A stretch of DNA of 64,000 nucleotides from Candidatus Omnitrophota bacterium (GTDB taxonomy: Bacteria; Omnitrophota; Omnitrophia; Omnitrophales; Aquincolibacteriaceae). Location: positions 448 through 64,447 of the forward strand of contig CAISGE010000021.1 in the NCBI GenBank assembly GCA_903884815.1, written 5' to 3'. Positions 18,277-63,089 of the stretch are shown piece after piece. Below the pieces are notes generated by a model. It did no database searches. It was not told where the DNA came from and saw only the letters and a program-made list of their open reading frames with translations. Each line of letters begins with the position of its first letter. Within the stretch, counting starts at the first letter, position 1. A program made the translations under genes and the position numbers.

Positions 18277-18282
18277 ATACGC

Positions 18283-18335: not shown

Positions 18336-18385
18336 TTTATTTTATAAACTGTAAAGATGGTTTTATAACACAAAGGAGAAATGAC

Positions 18386-20999: not shown

Positions 21000-23900
21000 T
21001 TAGGCAGCAACCGCGACGGAATTCTGAGCTTCGAGAGCGTTGAGGACCGCCTGAATAAACTCATTCCGCAAACACTCCGCTATCGAGAAATAGCCCGTCT
21101 CTTTATTTGAAGCTTGCTTCATGAGGTCCTTGAACTGATCTTTGCCGATCGACGCCGCCAATTGCGAGATCGCAAAGATCCGCTCGCCCAATCTCTTGCC
21201 TTCCTTGTCACTGATCATGACAATGGCGCCCTTATCCATCAGGCGGTTCAACACTCCACGCGCGCGCACAGACGCCAGAAGCTTCGGATTGACCGTCAGG
21301 ATGCGATGCTCCATCGAAGCGCCGCTCTTGGCTTCCGCCAAAAGCTTCGCCTCAAGCGCTTCGAGGCCCTTCACTGAATGATAATCATTATTGACCCCCG
21401 GAATATTGAGCAAGCGCGGCTCGTCAATACCATAGACCATCGATCGAACATTCTCGATCAAGGCGTCCATGCCGGAACGGTATTCAATGGTCGCTTCCAG
21501 GATCTGCAGAGCTTTCTCGTAGGCAGCACTCTCTTTGGGAAGGTTTGCCAGCACGGTCAGAAGGAATTCCAATTCGTTAACGACGGCAGAATGGCGAGAT
21601 GTTCCCGCCGCCTGGTCAGCCGCCTTTAGGGACTCAATTGTTTCTCGGTAAGAATCTTTCTCGTCACCTCCGAGAGCGTGGCGCAATTCATGCCGCAACG
21701 CCGATTCCATCGCATCAAGAACCATCGCTTGATCCAGAGCTCCCGAAGCATTGAAGACATCCACGAATTTTTGAGAGAGTACGATCTGTTTCGTGGTCTC
21801 GGTCTCCATATAGAAAGCCGATTTCCCAAGCGGAACTTGCCCAATACGGACGGAGACGCCCCTCTCACGTTCAAGACGCTCCAAAGCGTTCCTCTGGATT
21901 GCCGGCATGGAACCTCGGACCGTCCGGAGCAATCCTTCGCTTGCCACCTGACGAAAGCGCTCCGCATACCTTCCGGCATTCTTGAATCCCCCAAGCGAAA
22001 GAGCCGCCGGATCCGCATCGACCGGCAAGCCGGCACCCGCCGATCGCAACTCCGTCCGTCCACCCATTTCAACTGATGCTGCTGGCATCTCAGACGTGAC
22101 AGACTCTGGTTCATTTGTGGCATTTTGTTGAGACTCTTGTTCTTCAAGCCGGGTTTTTACCCAGTCATGCTTTGAGAACACATCAAACACAAGGAATATT
22201 CCGATACTTATCGCGGCGCCGACAGGGCCCGTGGTGACAGTCGAGATTCCGGCAATGCCCGCATATTTAAGAAAGGTCCCCAAAATACCCTTAGCATCTC
22301 CGCGAAGGGCACGCCTGAACAGGGTGTCCTTCGACTTTCGGGTAAGGATGTCCTCGATAGGCGCAAGCAACGCAATCGGAGCAAAAAGGCCGCTCAACGG
22401 AATAAGGAACGGCAGTACCTGGTATCCATACTGTATAGCGGCTGTCTTCTTCCAGGAACTCGGCTTAGCGGTCACAGGCCGCTCCTTCATAAGCCCAGTC
22501 GCCGAGCTCGACTGAGATTCGGCAGAGGGAATACCCGTGCGCTTTTCCGCGCGCACCGCAACAGGCCCCGCCGGCTGAGCAGCGGCAGCATTCGCGGCCA
22601 TGCGCAATTCCGGGCGCCCTGAACCGGCCGCAGGCGCTGGCGGCGGGAGTGCGGCCATTGAAGCCTGGGACAAGTTATCAACAAGGGATTTCAGGGTCCC
22701 GGCCATTTGATTAAGTTCATGGATATTCGTCGACTCAAATCCCCGCAAGTGCGCGTAGTAGCCGCTAAAGACATTAAAAACAGCCTCGATCTCGTTCCCC
22801 GTGGATTTATCCGCGTCAAATTGTCCCGTCTGAATATTGAAGCGGCGGATATGGTAGAAATCCCCATTGCTGTTCTCAGACATTTCGCCTTTGTGCGCAT
22901 CATCCTGAGCGCCCGACGTTTTCCCGTCAATCAGGATACCCTGCGTGCCCAGGACCCGAGCCGTGACATCTTTGTATTGAGCTGCGCTGCCGGGAGCCGC
23001 CACATCAATATAATGCTCGATATTTTGGGAGGGCATAAAGCCTTCTCCCGTAGACTCGATCTTCTCATAAGCCGGTTCTCCGTCATCGCCGACCGTCACT
23101 CGCTCGCTCGCAGCGCCGCGGCCATAATCATCCTCTGTTTTTTCAGTCTGATTCTGGCGGTCCGCAGAATAAACGCGCCGCACCCCCGTCAGAACATTTT
23201 TCAGCATCTGATTGAAGGGTTTACTTTGTACCGCGTGAAGGACGCCAAGCCCGACTTCTTCCCCCGTCGTCACAAGAAGACGGATCTCGCCTTCGTGCTT
23301 CGGCTCCCGGACTAAGGCGATGATCGTGCTCAGGATTATGGCGAGACCGGCCCGGTTATCGGCTCCGAGAGCCGAAAGCGGGTCTTTGGCGCGAATATTC
23401 CCGAAAGCGTCTATCGTTGCCTCAAGATCAGTCGCAACCTCGGGACGTACGTCCACGTGAGCTATGTGCAGGACGGGATCCTCTGTCGTATCGGGATTCT
23501 TCGCCGCGATCCTCACGGCCAATCCCTTGCCCGGAATCTGCTCGATCGCGTACTGATCCGAGGTGAGACCGGCGCTTGCGAGAAGCCCCACGAGGAGACT
23601 CCTTGTTTGATCCAACGCCAACCCCTCATCACGGATAGAAACCTTCGAAGGATCCAGGAGTTGGCTCAGGATGGCTTGCACCGATGATTCGTCATGGACA
23701 CCGTCCGTCAGCTTGATCGGCTGATAATCCGCGACATTATGAACAAGACCGAATTCCTGATAAAGAGCACCACGCAAGGCGTTCAGAGCAATAGCGGAAG
23801 CATCGCCGGCTTCCGGATGAGCGTTCAGATAGCTAACAAGTTTCTCATAGCCCTTCCCCGTATGGGCGCGCAGCGCACGTTCGATCAGACGGGCCTTGGC

Positions 23901-26900
23901 CCGGCCCTGTTCCTGGAGATCCATTTGCTCGGCCTGGGGCTTCAACGCTTCCGATGCGAGGAGCTCGTCTATCAGTTTCTCGGCATCCGCCTTCGCCTTA
24001 CCCAAGGTGATCGAACCGTTAGGCATCAATTGATCGCTCAAGGCATGAACGATGAGGTCGTCCGTGAGATCGTTCTGTTGCAATTGATCGGCAGTCAAAT
24101 CATCCAGCAGGACGAGATCGGCGGCGTTCGTTATATACTTTCCGAACCGGACGGCCTGAGATCCATGAAGCAGATACAGCCGGAAGAATGACCGGAATGA
24201 CGCCTTCATGATTTCCGAGCTGAAGTTATGACCCCGGGCGTAACTTTCGAGTTTCCTGTCGATCCCTTCCCAGTTATAGGTATGTCCGTGTTCCCGGTCC
24301 TGCAACTGCTCGATGATCTGGCCGAAGAAGTTAAAAACTTCCTCCATCATGATCATGCCATGTGAATCGCTCCGCGAGTACAGGTATGGGCGGGGTTGCG
24401 TGACATGCTTATATTCGTGTTGCGGCGACTGTTTCCACCAGTAATCGGCGCAATAGACCATCCCCGTTGACGTGAACCAGTTGGGACGCCCCTTGCCATC
24501 TCTCGCAATTTTGTATTCATGGGCCACCGTCGCTTCCGCACCCGTCGACTGAACCCAGTTATTCTTCATAAAGTCATAATATTCACCTATCTCCTGGACG
24601 ATATCTTCGGCAACATTAAAAACGGGCACCCCCATGTTGGTGTATCCATGCTTCGACATCCATAGGTCCATCCGCTCTTGATCCGATAGACCTGCGTCTT
24701 CCGGCAGGTTCGCCGTGGCGGGGATTGCCATGGAGGTTCCCAAACCGTCCGATTTCTCGACACGGCCCGTGGTCGGATCAAAACGGGCAACCCCGAAAAA
24801 GATCTTCCCTTCCCTCATTTTCGATTCGATGAAATCGACGAATTTAGCACGGCGAGCCGGATCGATCTGAAGCCGGTGACTCCCGTTCTCGTTATTTTCC
24901 ATCGTGAACACGTAGTATTCGGCCATCGACCGATAATCGCCCTTGGCGGTAGCTTCTCTTATAAACGCGCCGAAATCTTCGACCCCACGCAAATGCCTTG
25001 CGGTTGATAAAAGGTCCAAGGCAGAAAGTCTTTGCGCCGTATCGTTCGTGAGTACTTCCGAAGTGACAGTCCCGTCGCGGCCCATACGCTTGGCCGACAA
25101 GCCGCTTTCCGTCGCGCGTTTCAGGAATAGTTCATAGGCTTTGGCATAGGCCTTAATCTGCTCCAGCGCTTCCTGGGCCTTCTTTCCCGCAGACTTGTAT
25201 TCATTGAGCTTATCATTGGAAACCGATCGCTTCGCCTGGGTGATCGTCGCGGGAAGCAGAATCATGATCTTTTCCATGAGCGGCACAATATCCTGGAGGT
25301 CGGTCATTCGACCCGGAGTGCGATTGGCCTCAGACAGAGGATCCAGCAATTCAGAAAGTTGCTGTCTCAGCATCATGAGTTCATTGTCACCGATGTCGAT
25401 CTTCTGCAGGGACTTCAGGAAAGCCTGGATCAGCCCATAACTTGATTGCTGCAAAAGAATATCTCTTTCTTTCTCATCGAATTCGCCATCGGTTTGGATC
25501 AACCGGATAGCCGATCTTGCGAAATCGGCGCCTTGAATGAAGTGATCAAAACCGGCCAACCGGGCCGATTCCATGAGCCGGATCATCGCTTCATAACGAT
25601 CCGAAGAGCTCATAACTGCAAGCATATCCGCCCGAGCCTTCTCGTTCGCGTTTTTGAGATCCTCCGCGAAAGCTACTTTTTGGGCTTCGATAATGGCGAT
25701 CAAGGCGCTGTCTTGCACGGGATCGAGCCGGCTGATCAGATGGTTCAGCATGCTGACATCGTCGACAGGAGGATTCCCCTGATCGCGCGCTTCGATCATC
25801 TGATCCACGATCTCCATGAACCGGTCTGCCGACGGCTCCTGTTGCGACAAAGCGCTGCGATAGACCGGCAAAAGAGCCCGCGAAGCGGCAAATTCGGTCG
25901 AGTACGCCGAGATCTTAAGCCAATCGTCGAGCAGTAGTCTCTTTCCCGGATCTGGGATCTGGGCGATATTCTTAAGCTCCTCCAGAGAGAAAAATATTTC
26001 GTTCAGCCGAATCCCGGGAACACCGTTGTTTTCCACGAGCCGCGCATCGGCCAGCAACACCTTGCGTCCGTCCGGGCTCATCACAGGCGCGAAACTTTTG
26101 CCGTCCGGCTGGCGGGTATAAAGCACCGGCCCGACATCGCGCGTATGCTGGTTAATGTTATCAAAGAGGAAGACATCCTGAACTGCCCCGTCGACTATAT
26201 TGAGATCGGCAAATCCACCCTCATGGTTCGCGCCGCCGCTTGAGAGCTTCAGCACGTCTCCGTCGAAAGCGACAGAGAGTGCGGTCACGAGATCATGACG
26301 CTGGAATTCCATCGCACGACCGAATTCATCCAGAATTCCGGCCAAGACCACGCGACTTCCGTCCACCATTGCCGAAACTCCCGATCCGGCCTCAATGCGG
26401 ACCTTATCCGGGCTGAAAAACACCTTTACCCCTCGCCCTCGGTTCGTCTCGGCGATCCACTGTCCGCCGTGGAATTCAAAATTCGTAACCTGCTGACCCG
26501 AGAGATTGACAAGGGGCGCGCCGGTATGACTCACGATCTGATTTCCGTTTAGAATGAACCGCTCCTTCATTTTTATTTTCGCTTCGGCCGCCAAGGCGGA
26601 AGGGGTCAGTCCGGACGTCAGAGTCAGACCTTTCAAATTAAGGAAAAGATCTTCCGAGTTTGAGAAAACAGCACCTTGCGCCTGCAGATCCATCAGAAAT
26701 TTATCGACTTTGTTTCCATCCGTCAAACCGAGCCGGACCAGAAGTTCAGCATCCCGGAGCGATTTGAGATTAAACGCTATACCCCCGTCGAGCATGATCG
26801 AACTGGCCTGAAGATCCAGCCAAAGGTTCGCCGCCTTTGCCGCCGTCTGAAACGCGTCCGTTTGGCTCCAATCCGTGTCACGCCACAACTCGAAGATCTG

Positions 26901-29900
26901 GCTCACGCTCAACCTGTCCTCTCCCGCGAAGGCCTTCACAAAATGCAGCTGGTTTAAAAAATCACCGAGTCTCGGCCGGATCACCAAATTGATGTCCTTC
27001 AGGATATCGGCTTCGACCCGTGCAAGATTGCCCTGGACACGGGCCGCGGCAATGGCCTGCCGGTGAACTCGCATTTGATTCTGCGACGGGGCAAGTTCCG
27101 CAGCAAGGGCAAGGACCCGGCTCATCACGAGTGCGGCGGGATTGGAATACTGGCCGGAGGGACCGGAAATCCTGATCTTCTTAGTGGGATCCGCCGGGTC
27201 TGTTACCTCAAAGCCAGTACAATCCAGGAAATCAAAGAGTTCGTCCGCGCTCATACCAATTCGGGACACACCGATGATCGTCGCGGCCTGCGACACAACA
27301 TCGCGGACTTCGGTTCGCCGCTCCGTGGAGGACGTGCCCGCCCGGTCGACCCCGCTTGCCAGCACCGAAAGAGCGAGGGCCTGCCGGAGAGCGCCCTTGA
27401 AAACACCCTCGGAGAGCTGCTGATAAGAAGCAAGCGGCATCCTCCGGAGCACCTGATAGAACGCCAGGGGATCAATCACTTCACCCCACTGATCCGCTTC
27501 CGCACTACTGAATCCGGCCTTTTTAAAGACCTGCCCCGTGATCATGGATTGTTCGGACAAGGTTACAAGCTTCGAAAGCTGCTCGGGCTCCATTTGTTGC
27601 AGAGCGTCCAAAACCGTGCCGCTCAGGTTCAGATTCTTGGCAAGGACCGCGCGCCGCTTGGCCTGCTGGGCACCGCCCGGCAACGCCAGCATTTCGGACA
27701 CGATCAGATCCCAGACCTTGACAGCTCCCCCGCGCGGGAGGGCGCCACGAAGCTCCGTGATATCTTCAGTGGTTAGACCATAGCCCAGCAACTGATGATA
27801 GATAGTCAAATAGGATTTCCAATTATCGAAACCGGTATCGCCGAGAAGAGATTTCAGCCAGCTTGCCTGAGACTCAAGATGCGACTTCATCTCGTCTTCA
27901 TAATTCACGCTAAACACAACGCGCCCGGCCTGGAACCTGGCCTTCAGGAGGGAGTTGTTTGTGAGCAGTTGGCGGAGATTCGCGTCCTGAATCTTCGCAA
28001 CATCAATCTTTATCCCCGCGACATTCACAGTTCGGATTTTTGTTGTATTATCTGTCTGAACGGGCGCCTTATACTCACCATTCAGGGTCTCAAGCATCGC
28101 CCTGTCTTTGTCGGGAGTCCCCTCGGTAAGCTCCGACGCCTGCACGGTAACTTCGCTCGCCCGCCTCGATGCGTCTAGACCGGCCCGGGCACCTATCCCG
28201 CTCAATTCCGGCGCGAACTCGACGGCAAAACCCAGAGCAATAGCGATCATCGTGTCCGCCCGGGACGCCACATCGGTTTTAAAGCTGAGATTCCCGAAAA
28301 ACTCCCCTTCATACTGGCGCCGCCGCTGCGCTTGATTGATCGCCTCAAACTCAACACCCGCCCGTTCGATCACAGTACCGGCTGTCTCCACGGCCTCCTG
28401 GAGAGACCGCCTCACGGGTTCGCTTAGCTCTTTTCCGGCTCCCTTCGTGAGAAAGTTGTTAAGTTGATCTTTCGCCGTTTTCGCTCTTGAGCGGACAAGG
28501 CTGTTCACCGAATGAGGTCCGGAAACATAATCGTCGCCCCGTTCCATATCATAATCGCTGCCGTAATGGCGCATCAGTTCAATATTGAATTCACAAAGGA
28601 TCTCGCGCTCCTTGACGCCCTGGGCGCCCTGCGTAAAATTCGCCCGGAACATCGCGTCGCGCATCGGGTTGAACATGAGTGCGAAATCCATGAGCTGGCC
28701 GGTAAGGGAACGCGCTGTCGCGTCCGCCGCGTGGGCGCTGTTCAGCGCGTAGCTGAGGAGGAACTGCTCTTCCTTCGACAATTTCTCCCACTGCCCCTCA
28801 TGCACATTCCGCAGCCGGTCAAGAAGCTCGACGATGTTCTTCGGTCCGTTCTCGCCCAATTTATTCCCATACTCGTAGGCTTTTCCTGCGGGTGTATCCA
28901 TCCGCTCAAGAAAAAATTTGCGCCATCCGTCAATAGCCTTGAAATCAGAGAACACACTCATTTGGCTCTCAAGAAAATCCTGATTCTGATAGACCACAAT
29001 ATCCGCGTCATAGCGATCCTTGTCGCCAAACTTCACTTCATTGACAGGCTTAAGCGTTTCCGACAGAAAACTACTCCCCTCCTCTGTCACCCGATCCGCC
29101 GCAGACCGATCACTTGAAAGAATCTCGCTCAGTTTTCTCCCGTCCTGTCCTTTTCCCAAGGCAGTTTTGAGCGCGGCACTATAGGTCTCCCAATATTTTG
29201 AATTAATCTGATCAGCAAGATCTTGGGACGTTCCCCAGAGCCCCGATTTCCCTTCCGCGTAAGCCGAGACCATCGCTTCAAAAACCTCGTGCATGGCGAT
29301 CGTACGGCCAATACGGCCTTGGTTCTGAATCAACATAACGGAGGTGATCTCCGGCGTGAACCCGGCATAAAGCATATTTTCACGCTGATAATCGAAACCG
29401 ATCAGCGCGTGCTGGGCCGCCAAAACGATTTTCTCCTCGCTCCCCTGGTTGAACTTATCAACAGAGGGCTTGACGCTCTGCTGGCTTTCATAGGTTCCGT
29501 CGATCACAACGATCTGGTCCACCTTGATTTTCTCTTTTACCAATTCCGCTTTAACCAGGTCGATCATCGTATCCGTCGAAAAGCCCGACAGAACCGACCG
29601 CCGTCCCTCTTTAAACGCTGCGATTAGCTCTCGAGCGATAAAGTTGGCTTCCGCTTCCTGTGACTTGAAACTCGAAGGTTTCCAAGACTTGAGCTCGAAT
29701 GATTTCTTGGCTTGTCCCGGTCCGCGCGTCTTCTGAGAAAGAAGTTCATGGATATAAGCATCCGCGAACTGTCCACCCTTTCCGAAGATAACTTCCGTAT
29801 TCCGGCCGGCGATCATTTTCGCCTGCATGCTCACTTCCGCCACAGTGCCCGACATTCCGTAAGCGGCAGAAACCCCGCCAAAAAGCATAAAGATATCGGC

Positions 29901-32900
29901 CATGCTGGAAGCCGTGAGCGTATTCGTCATCTCGATGTTTTTGGCGCTCCCGCGGATCTGGGCAAGATCCAACGACTCGTAGCGGTTCGCCTTTCCGGCG
30001 GCCTTCAGGACCTGCGTCTCAGTCTTATACCCGGCCTCCTTCGACCCCTTGATGCCGAGACCGGCCAATTCATGGGCCAAACCGACATCATTGAGTTTAT
30101 AGCTGATCGTGATCAAACCGACGGTATCCGAAATGATCTGGGTATCCGCCTGCTTTCCGTCAGAACCCATGGGACGGTATTGATCCCCGACCCCTTTCCG
30201 GATCCTCCCCACGATACCCCGCTCAACCATTTCCGCGGTACGCATCGCCTGGTATTTCAAGATGGACTGGAGCTCTGAGGTGAAGATCGAAAGATCCTCA
30301 AGCTTCTCGCTCCTGTCATTCACCGGGATCGACTCGTTCTCGGCATCATAGATCTTGTTATAGCGTTCTTTTAGCGCGTCCGCTGCGCGGCCCCGCTTGA
30401 AGAACTGTCCGACTTGTGTCGAGGACTTCCGTATCTCGTACCGGGACGAATCAAAGAGAATAACCGCCCTCTGGTCGCCGTACTGCTTAAAATACTTTCC
30501 GCTCTCAGTCACAATGATGTGATCGCTCCAGCTCAGATTGGACTGATCCACGACATTATCGAAGCGGTCCATGAGAACGCCGTCCTTTTCCCAAAGCATG
30601 ATACTCTTGTCGCCCTTCATGGCCGGATCCACGAAAAGTTCGTTGTAGGCGCAGTACACATGAAAATAGCGCAGCTCGGTGGCTTTCATCGTATCGCCGC
30701 CGAGGATAAAATAAGTCGGATCCACAATGCGGTGGATCTCGTCCATATTGCGGACTGAACTTTGGAACACCTTGGAGAATTCCTGGTACTTGGCAAGCTC
30801 CGTCGACCGGAAATGCGTCATCAGATGGCCGAGGGTGGTATAACTCACGGCCAGCACCTCGCGGGCCTGATTTCCGTCTTGACTGAGAATGCTGAGCAAT
30901 CGCTGATAAGCTGCTTCGCGGCCAGACTCGGGGCCTTTGGTGATGGCTTCGATCAATTTCTCCCCATTAACCAGCTCAATGCCCAAAGCGTTGGCGAGTT
31001 TTTCAGCCGGAGACTTCTTTTGATTCGGCTCAGCAACAATACGCCCGACCGCCTGCTCACTTTCAGTGATATGGACATTCGCGCCAAAAATGAAATCAAA
31101 GGTCGCCATAAGGAAGGTCTTCCCGCCACCTACGGCTACGTTCACATTCGAGCCCAAAAGTCCTTCCAGAATGGCGCACATTTGCTCGTGCAAAAGTTTG
31201 ATGCCTCTGGCGCTGAAGACGAGCGCCGCGGTACGGAGCATCGTTTCGTGGGCCTTGAAGCCTCCCATGCTTGAGAAGAAATCCTTGAGCGAGGGCTCGG
31301 CCTTTGCGTCGCGAACGGTTTTTTCCATGAATGCGAAAATACGGGCATAGCTCTCAAATCCCCCGCCGCCTTCCGCCGCACATCGCGGCGCAAGATAACT
31401 CTCGAGGAATCGATTGAATTCCGGTTCGGAGAGTCCCACCGTCTTTGCAGATTTCTTTGCACTCCCGAAAGCGGTGTCGAGAATTCCCACTGCCGCCTGC
31501 CGGACCATGGTATCGGGGTCTAACAACTCCGAAATCAGACTGGGTTGCGCCTCATCGACGGGATAGGCCTGGTTTTTTATGTTCTTCAAAAACATGGCGT
31601 GAATAGCCGTCAGTTCGGTAACGAGGGTATCGAGGTTCGGGGCTTTATCAATCGCGTTAAACTTCTCGACGCCGTGGGTGAGTACAAAATAATACGCCGC
31701 GCTGGCAGCTCTCTCCACAGCCGCCGTCTCAATGGGAGAATTTTCAAGACTCGTCTTCCATGACCGCACCGGATCACTTGCAAGCCAGTCATTTACCGTT
31801 TGAACCCGTTGGCGCACAAAAAACTCGACAAGGACTGGATTGCTGACGCGCGGACTGGTGCCGTTCTTAAAAATCAGTTTGCCGTCACTTTCCGTCTGAA
31901 GCACCAATTTCCCATTTTCAACGACAAAAGAAACGTCGCCGCCGTAACGCCTGATCTCCGGAGCCAGGTAAAAACGCATGATCTCGAGGGCGACAGATGT
32001 CGCAAAGCTATTTTTCAAAAGGGCTTCTTTCCCCTCGAATTTTCCTTTGAGATCCAGCAACTGCTCCGCCACTTTTACCAGCGAGTCTACCTGGCTCAGC
32101 CATGGGTTATGAGCCTGGACCTTTTCAGCCTGATGGCGGAGAGCCTCGAACGCGGCGGCCTTTTCAGGATCGGCATCAATTCCCGTGACGCCCAGAGTAT
32201 TCATGAAAACCGCGATCTGGACATGTGAGTTGGTCTCGGCAAGCTTCGTGATCAAAGACTCAAGCAGCGTCCCTTTATACCCCCCGTCAAGCACCGCGTT
32301 TCCGAGCGCTCTCGCAAACGCGCCGTTCTTGTCCAACCCACTGATCACCTGAAAAAGATGATCGGCCGTTTCCACAGAAAGGATCAAAGGCGCCTTCTCC
32401 CCGTCGATCCCGAAAACAACCCTTGCGACCTGTCCTTCGGCATACTGACTCGCCGGGATATTCCGGAAAGCGTCAAAAAGCGCCTTGACCTGCTCCTTCA
32501 CCCCGATCGACGTGCGCATGTCCATGCGCCGCGCGCTTTCGCGCAGAATGGCAAAACGCCCGATAGCGTCCAGCCCTTCAAGACTCCGGCCGGAGCGCAC
32601 CGAAAAGATCCCTCCGTGAGTTTCAATGATAGATCTCAAGATCGACTCAGAGGGACTCAATTTACTGATCAAAAGGTCCAAAACATTATTCCCGTCGATC
32701 GTGACACTGTGGCCATCGAGAGTGGACAAGTCATTCAATATCGTCATGAACCGGTCGCCTTCTCCTGCACGGACAGCATCAACGTAGATAGTTAAAAGAC
32801 CCCGTGATACCGAAGCGTCGGACGAATACCGGGAGATGTTAATCCAGGAATCTAGCAATTTTCTTTTACCCGAACCAACTTCGATCGTGTCAGGATTCCT

Positions 32901-47900: not shown

Positions 47901-50900
47901 GGTCGCGGCCGGATTCCAAGCGTCAGCCAAAATGCGTTCCCGGCTCTTGGCATAGCCCTTATCGTCCATCACCTCGTAAACCGCGTCCGTGGTCGTGATC
48001 CCGCTTGTTGCATCAGTCCTCGGAGTCCGTGTCAAGACGGCCGCGGTTCGGCCGCAACCATTGATCGTGTAATTGTAGTAGGTAACGACGGCATAAGAAT
48101 CGGTTTGCTTTGTCATCAGGCCGGTATCGGGATCAAATTCCTGTTTCGTGCCAAGGAACTCCTGTCCGTCGAAATCCCCCGGCGTGTACCACGTGGGACA
48201 ATCTCCGTCAGCGAAACACCGGTCGCGCCAGTCCTTGATCACCATCTCTGTCATTTGCCCGACGTTATTCTTGGTGTAAGTAAAATCGGTTCTATTGCCG
48301 AAGCGGTCCGTGCTTGAAATGACATCACCCACATTGTTAAAAGTCTGGACGGTGGCCTGAAGCTTCGGGGTGTTTGTCAAATTCCAATCCTTCATCAGCT
48401 GATCGGTCGTCGTGATCTTTCTGAGAACACCGTTCGTATCTCTCGTATAAGTGAGATCCGACTGGTCGGTGCCGGTCTTCGGCTCGTACCGGTTCTTGAT
48501 ATGGATCACGTCCCCGTTACTGGCGTAATAGCGCGTCATGTCGTAGGTTGAATCTGGCGGGTTTGGCCTGGAAGCGGCGGGAATAAAAGACTCCCACGCA
48601 GCGGCGCTCATAACGGCGGTTTTCACAAGGGCTGAATAATCCCTTCCAAAGCCCCCGCGCGTCTCCGTCATGCTTTCGAGATTGCCGGTGACCGAATCAT
48701 AGGTTGCACTCGCCGTTTGGTAGACCACCGTCGCACGAAGCTGGTCTATCACCATCTGGTTCTGGCCCCAGGCATCCTGGACTGTGAGTTGTTGGACGCT
48801 ACCATAATTGGTAACAGCGGGAGTATCCGAAATGACACGCACGGTTGTCGCAGTCGGCGGATTGTCAAGCGCCGGGGTGAAGGCTCCCGATTGGCCCGGT
48901 TTGAACATGAATGACACGGTTTGCGTGATCCGCCCCAAAGCATCCCTGGGGCGGATAAAGACCTGGTCGCCAAAATCGGATTTGATCACAGACAGCTCTC
49001 CACGGTCGCTGTAGTAATAATATTCCAAGCGCTGGCCGCCCCCCGTAACGCCCAGGTCTGCTGGGGGGTGCATCACTTTATCGATCAGATCCTGGTAGGC
49101 CCCCATCACTTTTTTCTGCATATATTGAGTAACGGTGCCGTCAGAGCCGGTCGTTTTGTCAATATCGCAATAGGGTCCCGTCGGGGGGGTAACGTACGTG
49201 TAGGTCGTCTTGAGACCCGTCGGAGCGGTGATAGTGTTGATCCGGCCTTTCCTTTGTCCGGTGGTGTAGAACTGCGTCACGGTCCCGTTCCCGTCTGTGA
49301 CCGTGTCGACGGTTTTGCGCCCATCATAAGGATCCGTGGCATAGGTGTAGGTCTGGACATTGAAAACGCGGCCGATGACGGGAACATCCACGGTGCCACC
49401 TTGATCGAATTTATTGATCTTGGAAGTCGTGGTCTGCAGAAGTTCCTCGCCACGGTTGCCGGTATAGACATTGTTGGTCACGAGGGTATCCGTAGCGGTA
49501 TCAACTTTTTCCATGGCGTGCGACGTCGTATTGTAGGTGTATTTACTTTGCGATACTTTGCGCGGTGTGATATTAACCGGAGAACCCGTGGGATTCGTTC
49601 GCTCGTAAACATCGCTTACCGAGATTCTGTCCCCGACCATGGTCTGATCGATCCACTGGAGGTAACTGTAATCGGACGAGTACTGATCGTTTTGATAGCG
49701 CTGGATCAGGTACTCATGGTTGCCAGGCGTGCTGTTCTCGGCTCCTGTGAGTTGACGGGCATAGGTGGTCCGTACCGAATCCGTCGCGAAGCCACTGGTG
49801 AGATCCCCCTGGATCCGGACCCAGTTCCCTTGCTGCGAAATCCCGTTCACATCATACGCGGTGCCGACCTCTTGAATAAGTTTGGAGTAGCGGTTATACG
49901 TGGTATTGGGAGTGAACAGCATATCCCCATAATCAGTGATCCGGTAAGTGAACACCGTGGTGCCTCCCAACAAAGGATCAGTTTCCTTCCGTGTGAGTTG
50001 GCGTGTCAGCTGCGTCGAATTTTGCTTTGCGAAAGCGCCGGTCAGGGAGGTAGCCATAGCCGTCCAGTTACCCGGGATTCCGCCGTAGGTCGCGCCCTTC
50101 TGGAGGATTTGCTTTGAATATTCCAAATCCTTGTCGGTTACGACCCCAGTGAAGGACGAGTTGTAGTTGCCGATCGAGTAGGTCACGGGACGCAGGGCAT
50201 TGTCCGCGAGAGTATTTTCAACGATCGTGATCTGCCGACTGTAACGGGATTTGTAGGCCTGATCTCCGAAGGTGGAACTAAGATCGGATGACACTCTCAT
50301 CCATTTCTTCGTGCCTTGATTCACGCCGGCGTTTGAGAAGTCCGCGTCTTCCGTCTGCTTCGTGTAAGTAAGCCCCGTCTTGTCGGCCGCAGCGCCGCAG
50401 TTTTCGTCCGCATAGTTCCCCACGACGTATGTCACGCCCGAAACCGTGATCTGCCGCATGAAATTCGAATCTGCGGTGATTCCAAATGTCGCGCTGAGGT
50501 CCGTCGAAACTTTCATCCAGGTTTCGTTCGTGGTCGTCACCCCGACATTCGAGTAAGTCGAGTCTTTCACCTGTTTCGTGTAAGTAAGACCCGTGGTATC
50601 GGCCGCGGCATTAAACGCAGCGTTGTAATTCCCGACCACATAAGTTACGATCCCGACCGTCACCTGACGCATGTACTCCATGCTTGTCCCGGTCTTAAAA
50701 CTACTCGTAAGACCCGTCGTCACTTTCATCCAGGTCTCGTTCGTGGTCGTGACCCCGACATTCGAATAAGTCGAGTCTTTCTCCTGGATCGTGTACTCGA
50801 TCTTCTTCCCCGAGACGGGAACGCTGTCGCTAAAGGCGCTTGTGTAATTACTGATCACATAAGTGAAGTTCCCGACCGTCACCTGACGCATGTACTCCAT

Positions 50901-53900
50901 GCTCGTCCCGGCCTGGAAACTGCTTGTAAGACCCGTCGTCACTTTCATCCAGGTCTCGTTCGTGGTCGTGACCCCGACATTGGAATAAGTCGAGTCTTTC
51001 TCCTGGATCGTGTACTCGATCTTCTTCCCCGAGACGGGAACACTGTCGCTAAAGGCGCTTGTGTAATTACTGATCACATAAGTGAAGTTCCCGACCGTCA
51101 CCTGACGCATGTAATCCGATTGATTCATAACGTGTTCAAAAGACGCGCTAAGGCCCGTCGACAACCTGATCCACCCATCGCCACCCGCTATGCCGGGCAC
51201 GCTAAAAGCAGTGTCTTTAACTTGTTCCATATATTGTTCAGAACCGGGGATATCGAGCCCCTCAGGACTAACATTCCGTGATTTTGTACGAATCCAGGAA
51301 CCATCACCGTAAACATCCAGCTGAAATGTGTGGGCGGTCATAGTGGCAAAATCGTTTCCCGAGAATTCCATGATCTCGGTAGCTCCCTGGCGCGTCGGAG
51401 GGACAATATTTACACCCAATCCTTGAGCGTCATCATAGCTCGTTTGCTTAAACCACGTATCGTCCCGGTTGTGGTCCACATTGGATGTCTTCAACGTATA
51501 CCCGGTCGGCATCGGAACGCTCACGGGCAATTCCAAATCGGGCGTGTTGGCCTTTGAATAAATATTGTAAAGACCGCTCTTCATATCCCCTCCATAGTTA
51601 TGCACATAGGAGACATGATCCATGTTGGCATCCGCAATCTGAAAGGAATGGCTCTTGGGATCACCCAACTTCGAGATATCGTAAGTCCCCGTGGCAGCAA
51701 AAGAGTTGCCCGATCCGGGGGTATAACTTCCGTACGTCTGGGTCTCCGATCCCTCAGAGGCGAGAACAATGGTGGAATCTTCCGGTAAAACAACGTCCCC
51801 CTCATTCGCACGCGCGGTCTGGACAGTGTAGGTGTCATCGGCACATGCCGCAGCATTGGAGGAGGTGCATTCCGTAAAATCATGGCCGAAGTCGTGCGTC
51901 ACAGACTGCTTGGCCGCCACCTGCACCTGGCGGAAAGCGCGGGCCTCAACCCACGCCATGGTCCCCGGATCAGCCGGATCATCGCGATAGACGTACTGGG
52001 TCGTGTAATCGTAATCGTTTGTCGTAGCCCCCACTCCATCAATTTTATAATGAGATTCATCGTAGGAAACCGCGAGGCTGTCGAGAAGATCCGCCCCCCC
52101 CGTCGTATCCTGCCTGTAATAGGTGACGGTATGCATTCTCTTCTCATTGCCGGCACCTTGTTCAAAGGCCGAGATCGCGGTCGTACGCCAGCATGGCGCG
52201 GCCGAACTGCAAACCGTACTATTATGACTCGCATTACGGGTCCCAGAGGTGACCACGTCACGGGTCACCGTACGAGCAAGACCGATATAAGAGCCCGAGT
52301 CTCCTGAGTCGAACTCGAGCGTTCCGGAAACGCCCCGGGGATAAACCACTCCGTCTTTGCGCACATAGTTTCCGGCAACAACCTTGTAGTCGTATTCCGT
52401 CTTCGACGCGAGACTCGAAACCGTCGCTCCAGACGAGGGCTTCGCGTAGTTCTCCACATAATCGACAAGCCCCCCGCCATAAACATCAGAACGCGGCAAG
52501 AGAGCGGCCGAATAGATCTGAGAAATGATCGCCCGATTCAGCTTCTTAATCTCCTGCAACTGCACCGGCGTAAGAGACGCAGAGTCTGTCGGATAAGCAG
52601 CGCACTGATCGATGAGCGTCTGGATCTCAGCGTTAAATTGCGACCTGTCGATCTGGGTGGCCGCGGTAAGGCTCGAATAAAGATCGCGTCTCGCGTAGAG
52701 ATTGCTCAAAGCCGCCGTGATCTGCTGATCTGTCACGGAATTCAAATCGGCGGGATTGCCAAGCGCTTGCAGAATCATCCCGCTGCTTGTCGTTCCGTCC
52801 TGTAGCGCGCTCAGAAGTCTGGCACGATCAAATGAATTGACCGTCAAAAACCGAGTTTTTGTTTGAACCCAAGCTCCATCCGCGGTTGCCGGAACGGGAT
52901 ATTTACTGGGATCCACGAGTTCCGCGGGATCGCTCGGCCTTGAAAATGAGACGGCCGTAATGTTCGATTGTTCAATCGTGTCTACTTTATAATAGGCCGC
53001 AGGCTTGTTCGTGGTATCGGTGCTTTGATAGGTATATGTCGAACGGGATTCCAGTTTTGCCCCATCAAAATCATAGGACCAAACCATTTCCACCCGGCCA
53101 TCAGCGTCGTATTTTGTAACGCTCTGGATCACCTCCGCGCCGTTGGATGCCACCCTGAAAGAGGACGAAGAAACGATTTTCCCGTTAGTATTAATGTTAT
53201 AGGTCTTGGCGACCACATTGCCGTTGGCATCCCGTGTTTCCGCCCTCGTCGCCAGTCCGTCCGCATAATAAGTGGTTTCATTGCCGCGAACTGAATAATC
53301 GAGAGTGGAACTGTCAGAGTCCGCACTGACGTTACAACCTGCCTGACTGGACGAATAACAAAATATTTCGGTAACCCCGTAAATATCGGTGCTGGAAACA
53401 AGCACTTCGGGTCCGGTGCCCCCGATCTGTTGAAAAACAAGAACGCGGCCGCTATTTTCATAGCGGCGAAGTTCGGCATTCCCCGAAGGCACTTCTTTGA
53501 ATTCCGCTCCGAGAACATCGCTCACATTAAGGACCTTTTTGATCTGATGCGTAACGGGATCCTCCTCGTAATTGACGATCACGCCGCTTGAGTAAACGCG
53601 ATTGAATAAACCTCCGCCGAGGGACACCGTGGTATAGCTGGCATTGCTTCCCGCAGCATACGCGCCGACGAGGGTACCGTTCGAATCAACGACACGCTGA
53701 AAATCGCGAAGCACCGTCCCATCCCTAGCCACGATCGAGACCATCACACCGTTCTGGAAGAAGGTGGTAACACCATTCTTGTCGGTCACCGAGGTCACAT
53801 TACCGTCCTGATCCCAGGTCCTCTGCCAACCGGAACGGCCTTCACTGATGAGTCGCGCGTGGCTCATGTCGCCAGGGTGATCCTTATCAAATTCGTAGAC

Positions 53901-56900
53901 CTGATGAAAATCCTTGCTCGGGGAAGTGATCTCGACCCGGCCGGCAACATCATCGAACTTATAAAAAAGAGCGTCGCCAGTATCAATGTTCCTGTAGATC
54001 ACGACACGCCCCTGGGCGTCATAGATCTGTTCATAGCGGACATTCTTTTCACGATCGTACCCACGGACAAAACGGAGCACGTCGTCCCCTGTTCCGAACC
54101 GCTTGTCGGCACCGAGGCCGAACACTTGCACAGAAAAGGGATCCTGTTCCAGCATGCCGTTCACATAACGGCGCGTCGTGAGCGTGACTTCATTGGTCGC
54201 ATCATTCCAGCCGAAGTCCGTGAGTGTCCTTTGCGTTGAAAATCCGGCGAGCTCTTCGGTCATGGCCCAGGTCTTTCCGTCGGCCTGAAGCAGTCGCCCC
54301 GCGGCATCGCGAAAATAATTCTTCTCCTCCGAAAGAACTGAAAGAAAATGGTTCTTCGAAGATCCGAGCTCCCCGCCCCCGAGATCGATCGTACTCCGGC
54401 TGACGATCCCCCCATTGCTGTCCGTTGCGTTGACCGTGACCTGACCGTTGGCATAACCATAAGTGTACGTTACCCCCGTCTCATCGGTCACAGAAGTGAT
54501 ACGGCCGCCCTGTAGAACGACGCCTGCCGCTTGGGAATTCAAATAAGCATCGTCAGCGGAAAAACCCACGATAAAGTCATCTTTGGTTCCATACTTCCCG
54601 TCTCCGCCGAGAGAAACCGTGCGGTCAACCTTTTTCGAAAGATCTGTCGAGTTGTTTTCGATATGCACGGTCCCCGATGAAAGATCGTAAGTGTAAGTCG
54701 TCAGAACATTCGAGATTTTGTCCAGTGAGGATGCGAGGCGAGTATTCGCAAAGACCTGGACCGTGCGACCATCGTCCCGGGATTCTAGCGTCCGTTCCTT
54801 CATCGGGTCCGAGTCTTTCCCATAGCTATAGGAATACGTGATCGGAGATTTTCCGTCGCCCTGCATCACTGTGATCGTCATCTGGTTCTTTCCAGCGCCG
54901 TAAAAGTTTTCGTTGTAGCTGAACGCCATAAGAATATTGCCTTGCGCGTCCGTAGCGTTCGTGATGCGGCGGCTTGCGCCAACATGATACGTGACGCCAT
55001 TGGTCGAGATCTGCTGAAGATTGTCGTAGCTGTCCTGACCGGTTTTCGAGAGATCGCTTTTGCCCCAGAGTTGCGTGACGCCGTCGATCGTGACCGAGAC
55101 CGTGCTGCCGTCCTGGCTATAGACAACGTTAGCGCCCGCGGCACCGACCGGAGCGGCGCCCTGCGAGAGGATTTCGGGCAGAATAGCCGGCGTCGGGACC
55201 GGGTCGCCGGCATTAAGCTCGGTAGCGCTGGAGTTCAAATTTGCACTGCCCCCGCCTCCCCCGCCTGCGGCATTACTATTCAGATCATCGATCAGTCTTT
55301 TGATCTTCCCGCCGAGATCCGTACATTCATCCTCATCCGCGAATGCGCTTTTAATGCAATCGCGGTCATAAGTTCGCAGGAGACGTTCCAATCGGTCCTG
55401 ATTCGGATCGAAAGAGCTGCTGCTGCCACCGCCTCTGATTGTACCCTGAACTGATGGCGTATAAACTTCGTCATCCGCGGTATAGATGATCCCGTCATTG
55501 CCATAACGTTTGTGAACCGCCGCCGCGCCATCTCCCAGCACATAGATTTTATTCACATCGTCAAAAGTCCCGGTCCGTAGCATCGCCCCCGGCATACCGT
55601 TCGAATCGAGTTTATAGATCGTGATCGTCGCGCCAGCGTCATAATCCAGCTCCACCACCTCCGACGTCGCCTCAAGATAGCGGTAGACCTTTTTCAGGGC
55701 ACCGTTGGCCGCATTCGAAACTCTTGTTTTGCGTCCCATGGCATCGTACTCGACGATAACGAATGAGCCGGATGTCTGCGTGTCGGGCTGGCGTGACTTC
55801 ACAAGCACCGCAGCCGATGTTCCCGCGGGGTCATAGGTATAATAAAAATCGGAACCATTGACCTCGATCACATAGGCTAGTGGCCCGTCACACTCGACCC
55901 GAAGTATCTTCAAATCCGTGGCCTTCACAAATTGCTGAGAGAAAACAGCCTCCAGCAATTTCCGGTTCAGGTATTTCAATTCCATTAACGTCAGGGTGCC
56001 TTGGGAATCAAGAGCTCTTGTCAGTAAGGACTTTGTCAGGCTGTCAAGACTCGCCTGCGTCGCGGCATCCGCCTGAAGGCGCGCATAATCCGCCGGAAGC
56101 ATCCGGATTGCCAGGATCTGATTCAGCGCGGCCACCCATTCCGCAGGGGTGACGGCCGTTCCCTGCCCAAGCTTTGCTGCGATAGCATCAAGTTTGCCCT
56201 GGCCCCATCCCGCAGACAATAAACTACTTGTCAGAGAGTTAGCCCTGAAGGTTCCTATCAAATCACCCGCAGAAAAATTGACCGAGCCGAATTGAGACCA
56301 GTCGATGCCGGTCCAATTGAGGAGGGCCGTTTGGGCGGCCACGAACCCCGGGGAGATCGCGGCGTCCGTAAAACCGTAATGAGGGATCAGTGTTGAGCTA
56401 TAGATTGGTATTTGAGCGATCCCGTCAAACCGGACCGGTTCGCTGCGTGTCACGTTCACCCCACTCTTCGCATAGACGCCTTGTTCGAGAAGTCTGAACA
56501 TGTTCGAAGCGGGATCCAAACTAAAAAGGGAGTAATGACCCGCCGTCGCGGATGTCGGGTCATAAGCATAGACCTTGGTGACAGGCGGAACCTGAGATCC
56601 GTCGATCTGGTAATCATATTCGACGGTCTTGAAGGTCCCATCCCCGTTGGGAATGCCCATTCTGACCGGCCGCGTTGTTTTTGCGACAGTGTCGTAAAGG
56701 CACGCATACTCGGCATTGCCGTATTTCACGATCACGGTGAGAAGATTGGGACTGGAGGCATCAGCGATCAAACGGACATTCTCCATCGCGACCGTAACGC
56801 CAAACTTGGCAAAGAGGTCATGCGCCGCATTAAACGCCAGCGCAGTGGTGGCAGCGCTGTAACCCGCACTGGGATAGAGGATCGAGGCCATAACCGAAAC

Positions 56901-59090: not shown

Positions 59091-59334
59091 ATCCTTTCAT
59101 GTTTCACGACCCAAGATAAATTAAAACAAATTCACACGAATTCTGAGACTTAAAAGATCTCGGAACCCATTGTTACCAATACCCACATATAGTGCTTCTC
59201 AGTTCTCTTCATCTCTAAAAAAAGTATATCCGCGCTCAAGTTCTTTGTCAAATATTCCGATGTTATAAGTTGCTATATCCTTATATATGCCTCCCTATAG
59301 AAGTTTTTAGGTGTAAAAATAAACGATAAAATCT

Positions 59335-59361
59335 TTTTCAAAACTCATGAGTTTTGAAGAA
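59335..59361. promoter_or_regulatory. Perfect 18-bp palindrome caaaactcatgagttttg (extends imperfectly to ~30 bp) in the 388-bp AT-rich region upstream of the giant gene; candidate operator/regulator binding site
   Basis: Read directly from the sequence. It lies ~250 bp upstream of the giant gene's GTG start (59090) and ~125 bp downstream of the def stop (59479). The intergenic region 59091..59478 is markedly AT-rich compared with the flanking coding DNA. Confidence 0.35.
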
Positions 59362-59478
59362 ATCGGAAGAAATACGAAACAGAGGAATTCCTGAGGATTT
59401 AAAAAAGGCGTGAAAAAGCACTTTCGAATGCTCGAAACTTCAAAACGGTCGCAACGAAATACATTTCAAATAAATTCG

Positions 59479-59973
59479 TTATTTTCTTAGTGGCCGCGGA
59501 AATAGGTCGGTCTTCAGACACGTGACATGATCGATAAAAAGAACGCCGTCCAAGTGGTCCACTTCATGCTCCACGCAAATCGCCTCGATCCCGGCGCATG
59601 TTTTTTCAAGAAATTCGCCACGCTCATTTTGCCAGCACACTCGTAGCCAACGATGACGTTTCAAAAACGCCGTATAATCAGGAAGACTCATACAGCCTTC
59701 CTTGCGCGCCTCAGGATCTCTTTTTTCCAGGATCACGGGATTCACCAGAATGAGCCGCTCCGTTCCCGATTCTCGTTTTGAAACATCCACCACCGCAACC
59801 GCTTTCAAAACCCCGATCTGCGGAGCCGCGATACCGATCCCGTGCGGCTGACTTTTCATCGTGCGAATGAGCGCGGCCACGAGTCTTAAAAGTGAGCGAT
59901 CGAAGGCTTTGACAGACTGAGTTTTTTTTCGGAGGATCGGATCGGGAAAGGTCCGGATGGGAACGGGCTTCAT
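59479..59973 (-). CDS. def: Peptide deformylase
   Basis: 164 aa with the three PDF motifs GIGIAAPQIG, EGCMSLP and HEVDHLDG. Confidence 0.92.
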   Translation of the reverse strand: MKPVPIRTFPDPILRKKTQSVKAFDRSLLRLVAALIRTMKSQPHGIGIAAPQIGVLKAVAVVDVSKRESGTERLILVNPVILEKRDPEARKEGCMSLPDYTAFLKRHRWLRVCWQNERGEFLEKTCAGIEAICVEHEVDHLDGVLFIDHVTCLKTDLFPRPLRK

Positions 59974-59978
59974 ACAGA

Positions 59979-60530
59979 TTATAATGAAACGCGTTCGAGA
60001 GGTTTAATCTGTATCTCGATCTTGAGTTGTTTCGACACTTTAGCCAACATCGTTTTTACTTTCGACAACACAGACAGTTTCGGGACATCGACCTCCAGAA
60101 GCATCGCATAAGTAGTCTTGGCACCCCGCCCTAGAATACGGCTATCGAGATCGGTAATATTGACCCGCAACGCGGCCAGTGCACGGCTGACCTCATAAAC
60201 GATCCCGGTGCGGTCCTTCCCAAACGCCGTGATCATGCACGGCAGAGAGCCTTTTGCGTGCTTCTTACCGCCCAGGGCTTTTCCCTTAAGTTCGGTCAGA
60301 TGGCAGACTAACGACCATGGCGTTTCCCGAAGCAGATCCAAGCCTTGAGCAACCCGGACCACCGCCGCCACGGAGGGCAAGCACGCCGTCATCATCATGG
60401 CAAATTGCCCTTCCAAAAGAGTCATACTAATATCTTCGAGATTGCATCCACGAGCAAATAAGAGACCGCTTACTTTAGCGATAATACCGGGTTTATCCTG
60501 ACCGCTCACCGTGATCATGATCTTTTTCAT
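59979..60530 (-). CDS. ACT-domain protein (two tandem ACT domains; GcvR/ACT-regulator-like)
   Basis: Start taken at MKKIMITVSGQDKPGIIAKVSGLLFARGCNLEDISM (60530), giving an ATGA overlap with the upstream gene's stop; the track ORF extends to 60584. A second ACT-like unit is GKDRTGIVYEVSRALAALRVNITDLDSR. Confidence 0.55.
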   Translation of the reverse strand: MKKIMITVSGQDKPGIIAKVSGLLFARGCNLEDISMTLLEGQFAMMMTACLPSVAAVVRVAQGLDLLRETPWSLVCHLTELKGKALGGKKHAKGSLPCMITAFGKDRTGIVYEVSRALAALRVNITDLDSRILGRGAKTTYAMLLEVDVPKLSVLSKVKTMLAKVSKQLKIEIQIKPLERVSL

Positions 60531-62616: not shown

Positions 62617-62618
62617 GT

Positions 62619-63044: not shown

Positions 63045-63089
63045 TCCGTTCCTCCTTGTGGTTTTTCTTATTATACCCATTTCTCAAAA

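Follow-up and report, generated by a model that had tools for sequence, protein, structure and literature searches.

The window analysed here is a stretch of 64,000 nucleotides from an Omnitrophota genome (assembly GCA_903884815.1, contig CAISGE010000021.1, positions 448 to 64,447), and it contains a giant open reading frame (ORF) on the minus strand, at 21000-59090. According to the ORF list and our own translation, this frame has a GTG start, 12,696 sense codons, no internal stops and a stop codon at 21000-21002, and no N is present in the window; all coordinates given below for parts of this gene refer to the minus strand. One flank carries dnaK and a Bat-type (Bacteroides aerotolerance-like) operon, and the other carries the genes for peptide deformylase (def), an ACT-domain protein, AsmA and a CCA-adding enzyme, all of which are chromosomal housekeeping genes. 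The preliminary description of this locus, made from the DNA letters alone, had reported a single uninterrupted frame that could not have arisen by chance, and this is upheld: the GC content of the region (~0.53) rules out a stop-free run of this length by chance. Its wording that all alternative-frame ORFs are short was loose, as the ORF list contains some of up to 398 amino acids (aa). The start had been placed at GTG 59090, with AAAGGA as the ribosome-binding site. The motif is present, but it lies only 1 nt before that codon and is normally spaced for GTG 59081, which is also the start in public gene calls (12,693 aa), making GTG 59081 the more likely start on the basis of spacing.

Look-ups with flanking proteins (DnaK, a 600-aa TPR protein and the peptide deformylase) retrieved contigs from at least eight different samples (ENA, JGI, Logan and the NCBI metagenome-assembled genome (MAG) GCA_903869165.1), which match the window at 99.5-100% identity across 6387-30879 and 49260-64000. 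The assemblies of the giant gene are essentially clonal, with 0-2 substitutions. Three contigs span the gene without a stop, with one gene call each, of 12,693 aa (ERZ1426631) and 12,620 aa (ERZ27313164 and ERZ27313068). The split frame or chimeric contig that the preliminary description had asked to be checked was not found in these assemblies. A 219-bp (73-aa) in-frame tandem array at 50501-51117, with 2.8 copies at 87% identity, is where four short-read contigs terminate. A single clean 219-bp unit is all that separates the 12,620-aa version from the window, and this is either a real copy-number polymorphism or an assembly collapse; since the difference is a clean in-frame unit, the reading frame is safe and only the number of repeats is uncertain or polymorphic. 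The 38-kb frame is confirmed as a genuine single gene of an Omnitrophota bacterium, with a membrane protein of ~12,700 residues as its product.

Layout of the protein and its conserved core

The layout was obtained from a hydropathy scan and composition, together with Pfam and NCBIfam searches on tiles of 5 and 1 thousand amino acids (kAA) and searches of PDB sequences. Hydropathy and composition divide the giant into five parts: a leader, ~7,600 residues, a cluster of ~10 hydrophobic segments, ~4,100 more charged residues, and a hydrophobic pair with a 390-residue tail. The cluster corresponds to the membrane-like block noted in the preliminary description, and comprises ~10 Gly/Ala-rich hydrophobic segments at residues 7670-8115 (34746-36083) that are partly conserved in relatives. 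The family alignment places the start of the conserved core directly after it, in a juxtamembrane block at residues 8116-8321 (34128-34745), and the hydrophobic pair is a predicted hairpin of two transmembrane (TM)-like segments at residues 12225-12305 (22176-22418). Beyond the membrane block, the share of Ser+Thr is lower (12.6% against 18.0% before it) and that of Lys+Arg higher (11.0% against 8.9%). Together with the signal peptide, the ATP requirement of the motor and the cysteine pattern described below, this composition shift leads us to infer a topology with the arm outside the cytoplasm and a core of ~4,600 aa on the ATPase (cytoplasmic) side.

An exhaustive phmmer search with the last 1,200 residues against 1.84 billion cluster representatives found 18 relatives, seven of which are 4.7-7.2 kAA long; the core relatives are collinear with residues ~7800-12696 of the giant. 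On the single sequence, the 5-kAA tiles gave only a sub-threshold RHS_repeat and weak M42/PepT signals, and the 1-kAA tiles added only RHS_repeat and MH-clan signals.

The core contains a superfamily 2 (SF2) ATPase motor at residues 9290-9945 (29256-31223), with GGGKT (motif I), DEIH and DPTYFILGG (motif II), an insertion of ~280 aa, GMSGT, and QNQGRIGR (motif VI). The motifs are invariant in the family as GxGK[TS], DE[IVA]H-x2-DPxYFIxGG, GM[ST]GT and Q...R..R, as is Q..G..YQ; GM[ST]GT comes after the insertion and is followed by Q..G..YQ and then Q...R..R. Judged by these motifs, residues 9290-9945 are certainly an SF2 ATPase motor with two RecA-like lobes carrying motifs I, II and VI. The ATPase of the preliminary description is thus real, and it is visible only through the family alignment. 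Among the helicase-type models named there, ResIII matched three of eight core members and Helicase_C two of the eight (best E 3.6e-6). SecA_DEAD (PF07517) matched neither the window copy nor seven relatives. Strict Walker-A patterns at residues 12051 and 12417 were rejected as ATPase sites, being at chance level (two seen, ~1.6 expected from composition).

The relationship of this motor to SecA was compared at several levels. A profile of the motor block found only alphaRep noise among PDB sequences. A Foldseek search with the AlphaFold model of the motor gave nothing significant, with SecA (1tf2) first at E 0.023; SecA and SecA2 were among the top SF2 matches in the fold searches, without being singled out. 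In this model the insertion was well predicted, with a predicted local distance difference test score (pLDDT) of 84-92 for residues 190-330 of the block. For hhalign, the reference sequences of E. coli SecA and human eIF4A were validated against PDB (SecA gave 1,477 bits against 6s0k). The motor aligned with E. coli SecA collinearly through every motif, over ~480 columns and with a non-significant E of 0.035, and in the eIF4A control the C-lobe aligned at E 7e-4. No significant match was found between the motor and the preprotein-crosslinking domain of SecA, nor was a scaffold or wing region detected. The motor could be called SecA-like in its motifs and in the position of its insertion only, and its membership in the SecA family is unproven.

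The motor is followed by a third conserved block at residues 10016-10404 (27879-29045), which emerged from the family alignment and is without a known family. Self-comparison also revealed a duplication of ~140 aa, with copy A at residues 8683-8830 (32601-33044) and copy B, 37% identical to it, at residues 10991-11142 (25665-26120). The two copies sit on either side of the ATPase motor.

Three modules with metallopeptidase-type motifs are found towards the C-terminus. The first is a gluzincin-like module at residues 11455-11740 (23871-24728), with HExxH at 11558-11562, Pro 11566 and Glu-Glu 11583-11584 (HExxH-x20-E). The HExxH-x20-EE motif and Pro 11566 are invariant in ten sequences and have the gluzincin spacing, and the module has no Pfam or PDB sequence match. 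The second is related to the MH clan (M20/M28/M42-like) of metallopeptidases, at residues ~11835-12140 (22671-23588), with the motifs HxD, GADNRAG, EE, DRQ and AHxRGFE. A search for M20 and M42 had been proposed: Peptidase_M42 reached 23.3 bits on one tile, just over its gathering score of 23.2 (22.5 on a longer tile and 18.4 on another), but the M20 match was below threshold, as were those of M28 and PepT, and the match to PepT among PDB sequences had an E of ~0.02-0.04. The five metal ligands and the catalytic Glu are conserved in all seven members with the module, the last two ligands being assigned by position; this conservation suggests that the module is probably active, and the peptidase-like module of the preliminary description stands with its ligand motifs intact.

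The third is the C-terminal domain, at residues 12405-12696 (21003-21878), which has an invariant HExxH (12467), mostly in the form HExxHxxGxxE, and a small alpha/beta part. The HExxH is present in 14 of 14 such domains, and single members weakly touch the SprT-like, M48 and aspzincin models. The giant thus has two HExxH motifs, where one had been noted, and both are invariant in relatives. All 14 proteins end in [QS]-[VT]-x-x-[AS]-A-COOH (NSVAVAA in the giant, 21003-21023). This tail is reminiscent of ssrA-type tails or of those recognised by tail-specific proteases. The C-terminal domain also ends much smaller proteins, and it or the MH peptidase is found in P0005 (719 aa), P0008 (1,101 aa), P0013 and P0015-P0018.

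At the other end of the protein, the Sec-like signal peptide that had been reported is present, and it is conserved in relatives. The leader, at residues 1-42 (58965-59090), has the features of a Sec-type signal peptide, with a basic n-region, the short hydrophobic core LSLFVIFTFLL (residues 20-40 by hydropathy), and TQTDVQLVFA, which contains a VFA motif, followed by FG. The signal region AYHSE[RK]KxW..KA.SLFVIFxFLxTQSDVQL is near-invariant across 13 loci (L018 and L026-L037), and the mature sequence right after it is only 45-50% identical across the leader-bearing loci. The leader is thus far more conserved than ordinary Sec signals, which suggests a dedicated recognition.

The leader is followed by a conserved N-terminal module at residues ~43-2484 (51639-58964), whose identity to the starts of other giant ORFs, found at the same genomic position in related Omnitrophota, falls from 52% to 28%. 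The rest of the predicted extracytoplasmic arm, residues ~2485-7669 (36084-51638), is rich in Ser/Thr/Asn and aromatic residues and largely non-repetitive, and has no family match in Pfam or PDB sequences; only its residues 7007-7671 match the closest relative. Residues 41-7660 contain nine close Cys pairs (5-11 residues apart), where 1.7 would be expected (P ~2e-4), and the C-terminal part has no such pair. Examples are 1911/1919, 2294/2300, 3625/3631 and 4106/4111. These pairs may form small disulphide loops, and the cysteine distribution supports the predicted division into an outside and an inside part.

The only RHS_repeat match lies at residues 1529-1561 (54408-54506), with 26.3 bits on a 1-kb tile (gathering score 22), and it is sub-threshold on the 5-kAA tiles. 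NCBIfam found no YD repeat (TIGR01643) in the giant. The YD/RHS repeat blocks of the preliminary description are thereby reduced to one marginal match. Self-comparison showed seven beta-rich repeats of ~73 aa at residues 2619-3133 (49692-51236), the three youngest copies of which form the 219-bp array, and a weak pair at residues 5456-5572 and 5917-6039; apart from these and the ~140-aa duplication, the giant is non-repetitive, and it is not a mere chain of ordinary adhesin repeats.

Relatives, gene neighbourhood and host

Residues 1-7000 have no match in the relatives retrieved by way of the C-terminus, which is partly an effect of truncation. A related Omnitrophota MAG (CAYZYT01), to which the contigs L018 and L023 belong, has at least two core-family genes. 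On L018 (17524-19639), a further gene starts 1.4 kb after the end of a core-family gene; it bears the leader of the giant, and its N-terminus shares 44% identity with residues 2-224, so that giant genes can stand in tandem. A metagenome scan with a single-sequence leader gave no match; with a two-sequence leader alignment, it found 12 more loci, from sludge, peat, landfill and lake. At the leader loci, identity to the giant is 42-52% over residues 1-~560, 28-32% over 1045-2137 and 35% over 2319-2484. Their ORFs all reach the end of the fetched DNA, and are at least 3,555 aa long where 10 kb were fetched. Most of the related ORFs continue past the fetched flank (at least 5.7 to at least 6.8 kAA), and two complete relatives have 4,536 and 6,072 aa.

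The order CCA-orf154-AsmA-ACT-def followed by the giant gene is kept in nine metagenome loci. Given this conserved order, with a giant ORF at the same position, the giant gene is best described as a positional orthologue maintained across a clade. The neighbours in the nine loci are 75-84% identical to those of the window (53-69% for AsmA), and the giant drops from ~45-50% to ~30% and then to undetectable. By these identities the giant evolves far more quickly than the genes beside it, with the greatest divergence in the part of the arm past about residue 2,500. On the other side, in loci L023 and L024, the core gene is followed by a convergent gene homologous to VWA-TPR of the window, the same arrangement that the window shows. 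The closest leader-bearing relative (L032, Ga0114951_10000245, from the same lake sample as L011) is 52% identical over residues 4-558. It lacks the def, ACT and AsmA neighbours, and may be a paralogous locus, or else come from a related, co-occurring organism whose gene context is rearranged.

The Bat-type operon is complete and lies on the plus strand at 10371-20879, convergent with the giant gene. It contains two BatD-like genes, MoxR, DUF58, an unannotated gene of 316 aa, BatA, VWA-TPR, YqeY and the 600-aa TPR gene. Its convergent arrangement with the giant gene is kept in L023 and L024. A second very large gene, on the plus strand at 68-8077, is open at the left edge of the window and encodes at least 2,691 aa here and 2,803-2,812 aa where other assemblies cover it. 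Its product contains an inositol-monophosphatase-like domain (Pfam Inositol_P, E 8e-12) and ~8 hydrophobic segments, and shares no sequence relationship with the giant. The longer contigs extend past the window on the right and contain, ~10.9 kb upstream of where the giant starts, a secretin gene (L010/L011, 1-1404) with STN, Secretin_N and Secretin domains, and RmuC and several small genes lie between it and the giant side. This secretin gene recalls the neighbourhoods resembling a type II secretion system (T2SS) that have been reported for Omnitrophota giants.

The giant gene is separated from def by a spacer of 388 bp and is probably transcribed independently, as judged from the sequence. 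A candidate sigma-70-like promoter (TTGACA-17-TATACT, 11/12) lies at 59223-59251 on the minus strand, ~135 nt upstream of the start; it is a consensus match only, and such sites are no more frequent in the 388-bp region than chance would give. The 3' end of the gene showed no intrinsic terminator, and Rfam had no match to an RNA family anywhere in the window.

The DnaK and MoxR proteins encoded here share clusters of at least 90% identity with NCBI proteins of 'Candidatus Omnitrophota bacterium', and all the named genomes with relatives of the core are Omnitrophota MAGs. The host is an uncultivated Omnitrophota bacterium of anoxic freshwater lake water. The giant gene is abundant and nearly clonal in well-sampled Finnish and Swedish stratified-lake metagenomes, and the names of the samples (BUCK21, JGI Ga0114951) suggest as their source the stratified-lake dataset of Buck et al. 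2021; West-Roberts et al. (10.1101/2023.11.21.568195) mined it too.

Proposed function and comparison with known systems

We favour, with moderate confidence, the view that the giant is a membrane-anchored envelope protein with an exported arm and a cytoplasmic engine. The Sec-type leader would send the first ~7,600 residues across the cytoplasmic membrane, where they would make up an elongated beta-rich arm, largely free of repeats, with short disulphide loops to stabilise it. The ~10 hydrophobic segments would anchor the protein in the membrane, and the last ~4,600 residues would stay in the cytoplasm as the core that is conserved across a small Omnitrophota family, a location suggested by the need of the ATPase for ATP and by the cysteine and charge patterns. 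This core could act as an ATP-driven engine that helps to export, hold, remodel, process or turn over the arm, or that serves its quality control or maturation, whether on its own chain or on sister molecules; as the motor comes last in translation, it might work in trans between copies. The arm may contact host or prey cells, as suggested by its fast divergence and by what the literature proposes for Omnitrophota giants and their T2SS-like neighbourhoods.

Several points weigh against this view. A C-terminal motor, translated after the arm, cannot drive the co-translational export of its own chain. The topology comes from a hydropathy scan that found ~10 segments and does not fix whether the number of membrane crossings in the block is odd or even. 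No adhesion, lectin or enzyme domain was recognised in the exported arm with Pfam and NCBIfam; its contact role is argued from its fast divergence and the literature, and the literature is the only source for that role and for the substrates proposed for the motor and the peptidases. Neither HExxH module matches a known peptidase family, so that peptidase activity is a motif-level proposal. In the AlphaFold models, the motor, from an alignment of eight sequences, is only moderately confident, with a mean pLDDT of 58.9 and poorly predicted catalytic loops, and the gluzincin-like block (eight rows) has a pLDDT of 52, too poor for use of the fold.

The same layout argues against the secreted multi-enzyme effector proposed in the preliminary description, which is unlikely as stated: the recognisable enzymatic modules all lie C-terminal to the membrane block, on the side of an ATPase that depends on cytoplasmic ATP, and the 7.6 kAA predicted to be exported have no detectable enzyme domain.

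It is conceivable, though unlikely, that the giant is a self-processing polyprotein, cut by its own metallopeptidases into several independent products (a surface fibre that is released, a piece in the membrane, and the ATPase and peptidases in free form) and never acting as one molecule. Three peptidase-type modules with intact motifs are present in one chain, far smaller proteins also contain the C-terminal domain or the MH peptidase, which can therefore work as separate units, and cleavage of Omnitrophota giants has been raised as a possibility (West-Roberts et al., 10.1101/2023.11.21.568195). However, the peptidases, being predicted to be cytoplasmic, could not reach the exported arm, and no cleavage sites or linker pattern were identified. 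Enzymes of clan MH are exopeptidases or deacylases, not endoproteases. All relatives keep their blocks in a strictly collinear order, which speaks for selection to keep them fused.

A more ambitious proposal, to which we assign a rather low probability, is that the core of ~5 kAA is an undescribed, self-contained membrane machine of the Omnitrophota that translocates or tensions its own hypervariable arm or matures it by proteolysis, recognising it through the unusually conserved leader. Its parts would be the membrane block, the SecA-like SF2 motor flanked by the duplicated domain, the gluzincin-like module, the MH-clan peptidase, the hairpin and the zincin-like end domain with its invariant V-x-x-A-A C-terminus. 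If true, this would be a new kind of dedicated export and processing system, fused to its own cargo.

Similarly improbable is a nucleic-acid translocase, in which the SF2 motor would move DNA or RNA through the membrane block, for uptake from or delivery to a host, with the arm as a docking device. General SF2 helicases match the motor structurally as well as SecA does. However, DPxYFIxGG after motif II, GM[ST]GT and a domain between motifs II and III (here the ~280-aa insertion) are hallmarks of SecA and not of helicases, and the alignment with SecA is collinear. SecA and SecA2 are among the top structural matches, and no nucleic-acid-binding or nuclease domain was found with Pfam. Published Omnitrophota giants also bear SecA-type domains (West-Roberts et al., 10.1101/2023.11.21.568195).

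A polymorphic toxin of the Rhs or Tc type, with an RHS/YD shell around a C-terminal toxin aimed at neighbouring cells, is very improbable. In its favour, one RHS_repeat match on a 1-kb tile passes the Pfam threshold, the arm evolves fast and is rich in beta structure, and RHS-like beta-helical predictions are mentioned for other giants (West-Roberts et al., 10.1101/2023.11.21.568195). Against this, the match is single and short, with no YD repeat in NCBIfam, and RHS core, toxin, PAAR, VgrG and Tc domains were not found in the Pfam searches. The polarity is opposite to that of Rhs toxins, as the C-terminus of the giant is conserved and its N-terminus variable, and the C-terminal region sits behind a membrane block and contains an ATPase. 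Finally, an assembly artefact, a chimeric contig or a decaying pseudogene is effectively refuted already: short-read assemblies do stop at the 219-bp repeats, whose copy number varies between assemblies, but the sequence on both sides is identical in at least eight samples, three contigs span the whole gene without a stop, the versions differ by one in-frame unit, related genomes hold orthologous giant ORFs at the same position, and the catalytic motifs are conserved.

The favoured view, that of an anchored protein with an exported arm and a cytoplasmic engine, can be set beside several known systems. Like SecA, the motor has motif I as GxGKT, motif II as DE[VI][DH] followed by D..(T)P/Y.I..G, GM[ST]GTA, a second RecA lobe with Q..GR.GR, and a large insertion between motifs II and III, the site of the preprotein-crosslinking domain of SecA. 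Unlike SecA, which is a soluble 100-kDa protein, it is embedded in a membrane protein of 12.7 kAA, is without a significant sequence or profile match, and shows no detected helical scaffold, wing or C-terminal zinc-finger regions.

In the protease FtsH, a single chain joins a membrane anchor to a cytoplasmic ATPase and then to a zinc-peptidase of the HExxH type. The giant also appears to join a membrane anchor, a cytoplasmic ATPase and an HExxH module, and this functional analogy would suggest ATP-driven handling of polypeptides at the membrane. The differences are that its ATPase belongs to SF2 and not to AAA+, that its HExxH modules are unlike M41, and that its size and exported arm have no counterpart in FtsH. 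With the MH-clan peptidases the giant shares HxD, GxD (with the bridging Asp), EE, a second acidic ligand and a C-terminal His. However, its module is very divergent (E 1e-5 to 1e-2), is embedded in a giant protein, is present in only part of the core family, and has a long acidic insertion between EE and DRQ in the window copy and its closest relatives.

Giants of the Omnitrophota are thought to mediate the attachment of these ultra-small bacteria to host cells or their attack on them, and to our knowledge none has been characterised. The statement that genes above 30 kb are extremely rare fails for this phylum, in which 93.8% of the complete genomes carry at least one protein of at least 10 kAA, with a median of two (Nielsen & Lui 2026, 10.64898/2026.06.07.730766). 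As many as 5,761 proteins of at least 10 kAA were clustered in that study (10.64898/2026.06.07.730766), and reported sizes of giants go up to 85,804 and 147,155 aa (10.1101/2023.11.21.568195). The present gene is ordinary in size for its phylum and is an uncharacterised member of a known protein class. Giant ORFs are best judged against the host phylum, where this one is expected and not exceptional.

The preliminary description had held that the architecture matches no described family. This is true for the toxins: repeats, effector domains and cysteine-protease domains of MARTX, Tc and polyvalent proteins had no Pfam or NCBIfam match anywhere in the giant, and its assignment as an Rhs, Tc or MARTX toxin was rejected. 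It does not extend to the Omnitrophota giants, whose described plan is the one seen here (10.1101/2023.11.21.568195). Most of these have a signal peptide and/or TM helices, and divergent SecA-type domains are frequent among them. Their genes occur close to T2SS-like genes, and a role in attachment or predation has been proposed (10.1101/2023.11.21.568195). In the catalogue of giants, 94% have a signal peptide and/or TM helices and 39% fall in the class with both, 'SP+TM' (10.1101/2023.11.21.568195; 10.64898/2026.06.07.730766). 'Pfam-dark' giants make up 137 of 916 (~15%), and structural follow-up of them has been urged (Nielsen & Lui, 10.64898/2026.06.07.730766).

The MH peptidase, the two HExxH modules, the tail, the motor core and the near-invariant leader appear to be undiscussed in both Omnitrophota papers, as judged by term searches. 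At least one Pfam-dark giant is other than featureless: its relatives, when compared, reveal a conserved engine, predicted to be cytoplasmic, of an SF2/SecA-like ATPase and three metallopeptidase-type modules whose catalytic motifs are intact, behind a fast-evolving arm predicted to be exported. It is also tractable: it has 12.7 kAA, is syntenic across a clade, which allows evolutionary analysis, and its modules of 300-650 aa could be expressed separately.

Among the Omnitrophota giants, the protein belongs by its host genome, by an ORF of at least 10,000 aa and by a leader and hydrophobic segments seen in the hydropathy scan. It shares with them the size of at least 10 kAA, the SP+TM plan, the long domain-free N-terminal stretch, a secretin/T2SS-like neighbour, a very fast divergence and, as far as its SecA-like motifs go, a divergent ATPase of the SecA/DEAD type in which the scaffold and wing domains of SecA were not detected. 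With 12.7 kAA it is far below the giants of more than 30 kAA analysed by West-Roberts et al. (10.1101/2023.11.21.568195). It differs from the Archaeovorin type in having only peptidase-type signals in Pfam and NCBIfam, without glycosyltransferase, methyltransferase, SAM-methylase, NUDIX or glycoside hydrolase modules, and from the Dockerin type in having no dockerin or TSP3 repeats (Pfam) and almost no repeats in self-comparison. Being neither Archaeovorin nor Dockerin-type, the giant falls in the Pfam-dark fraction.

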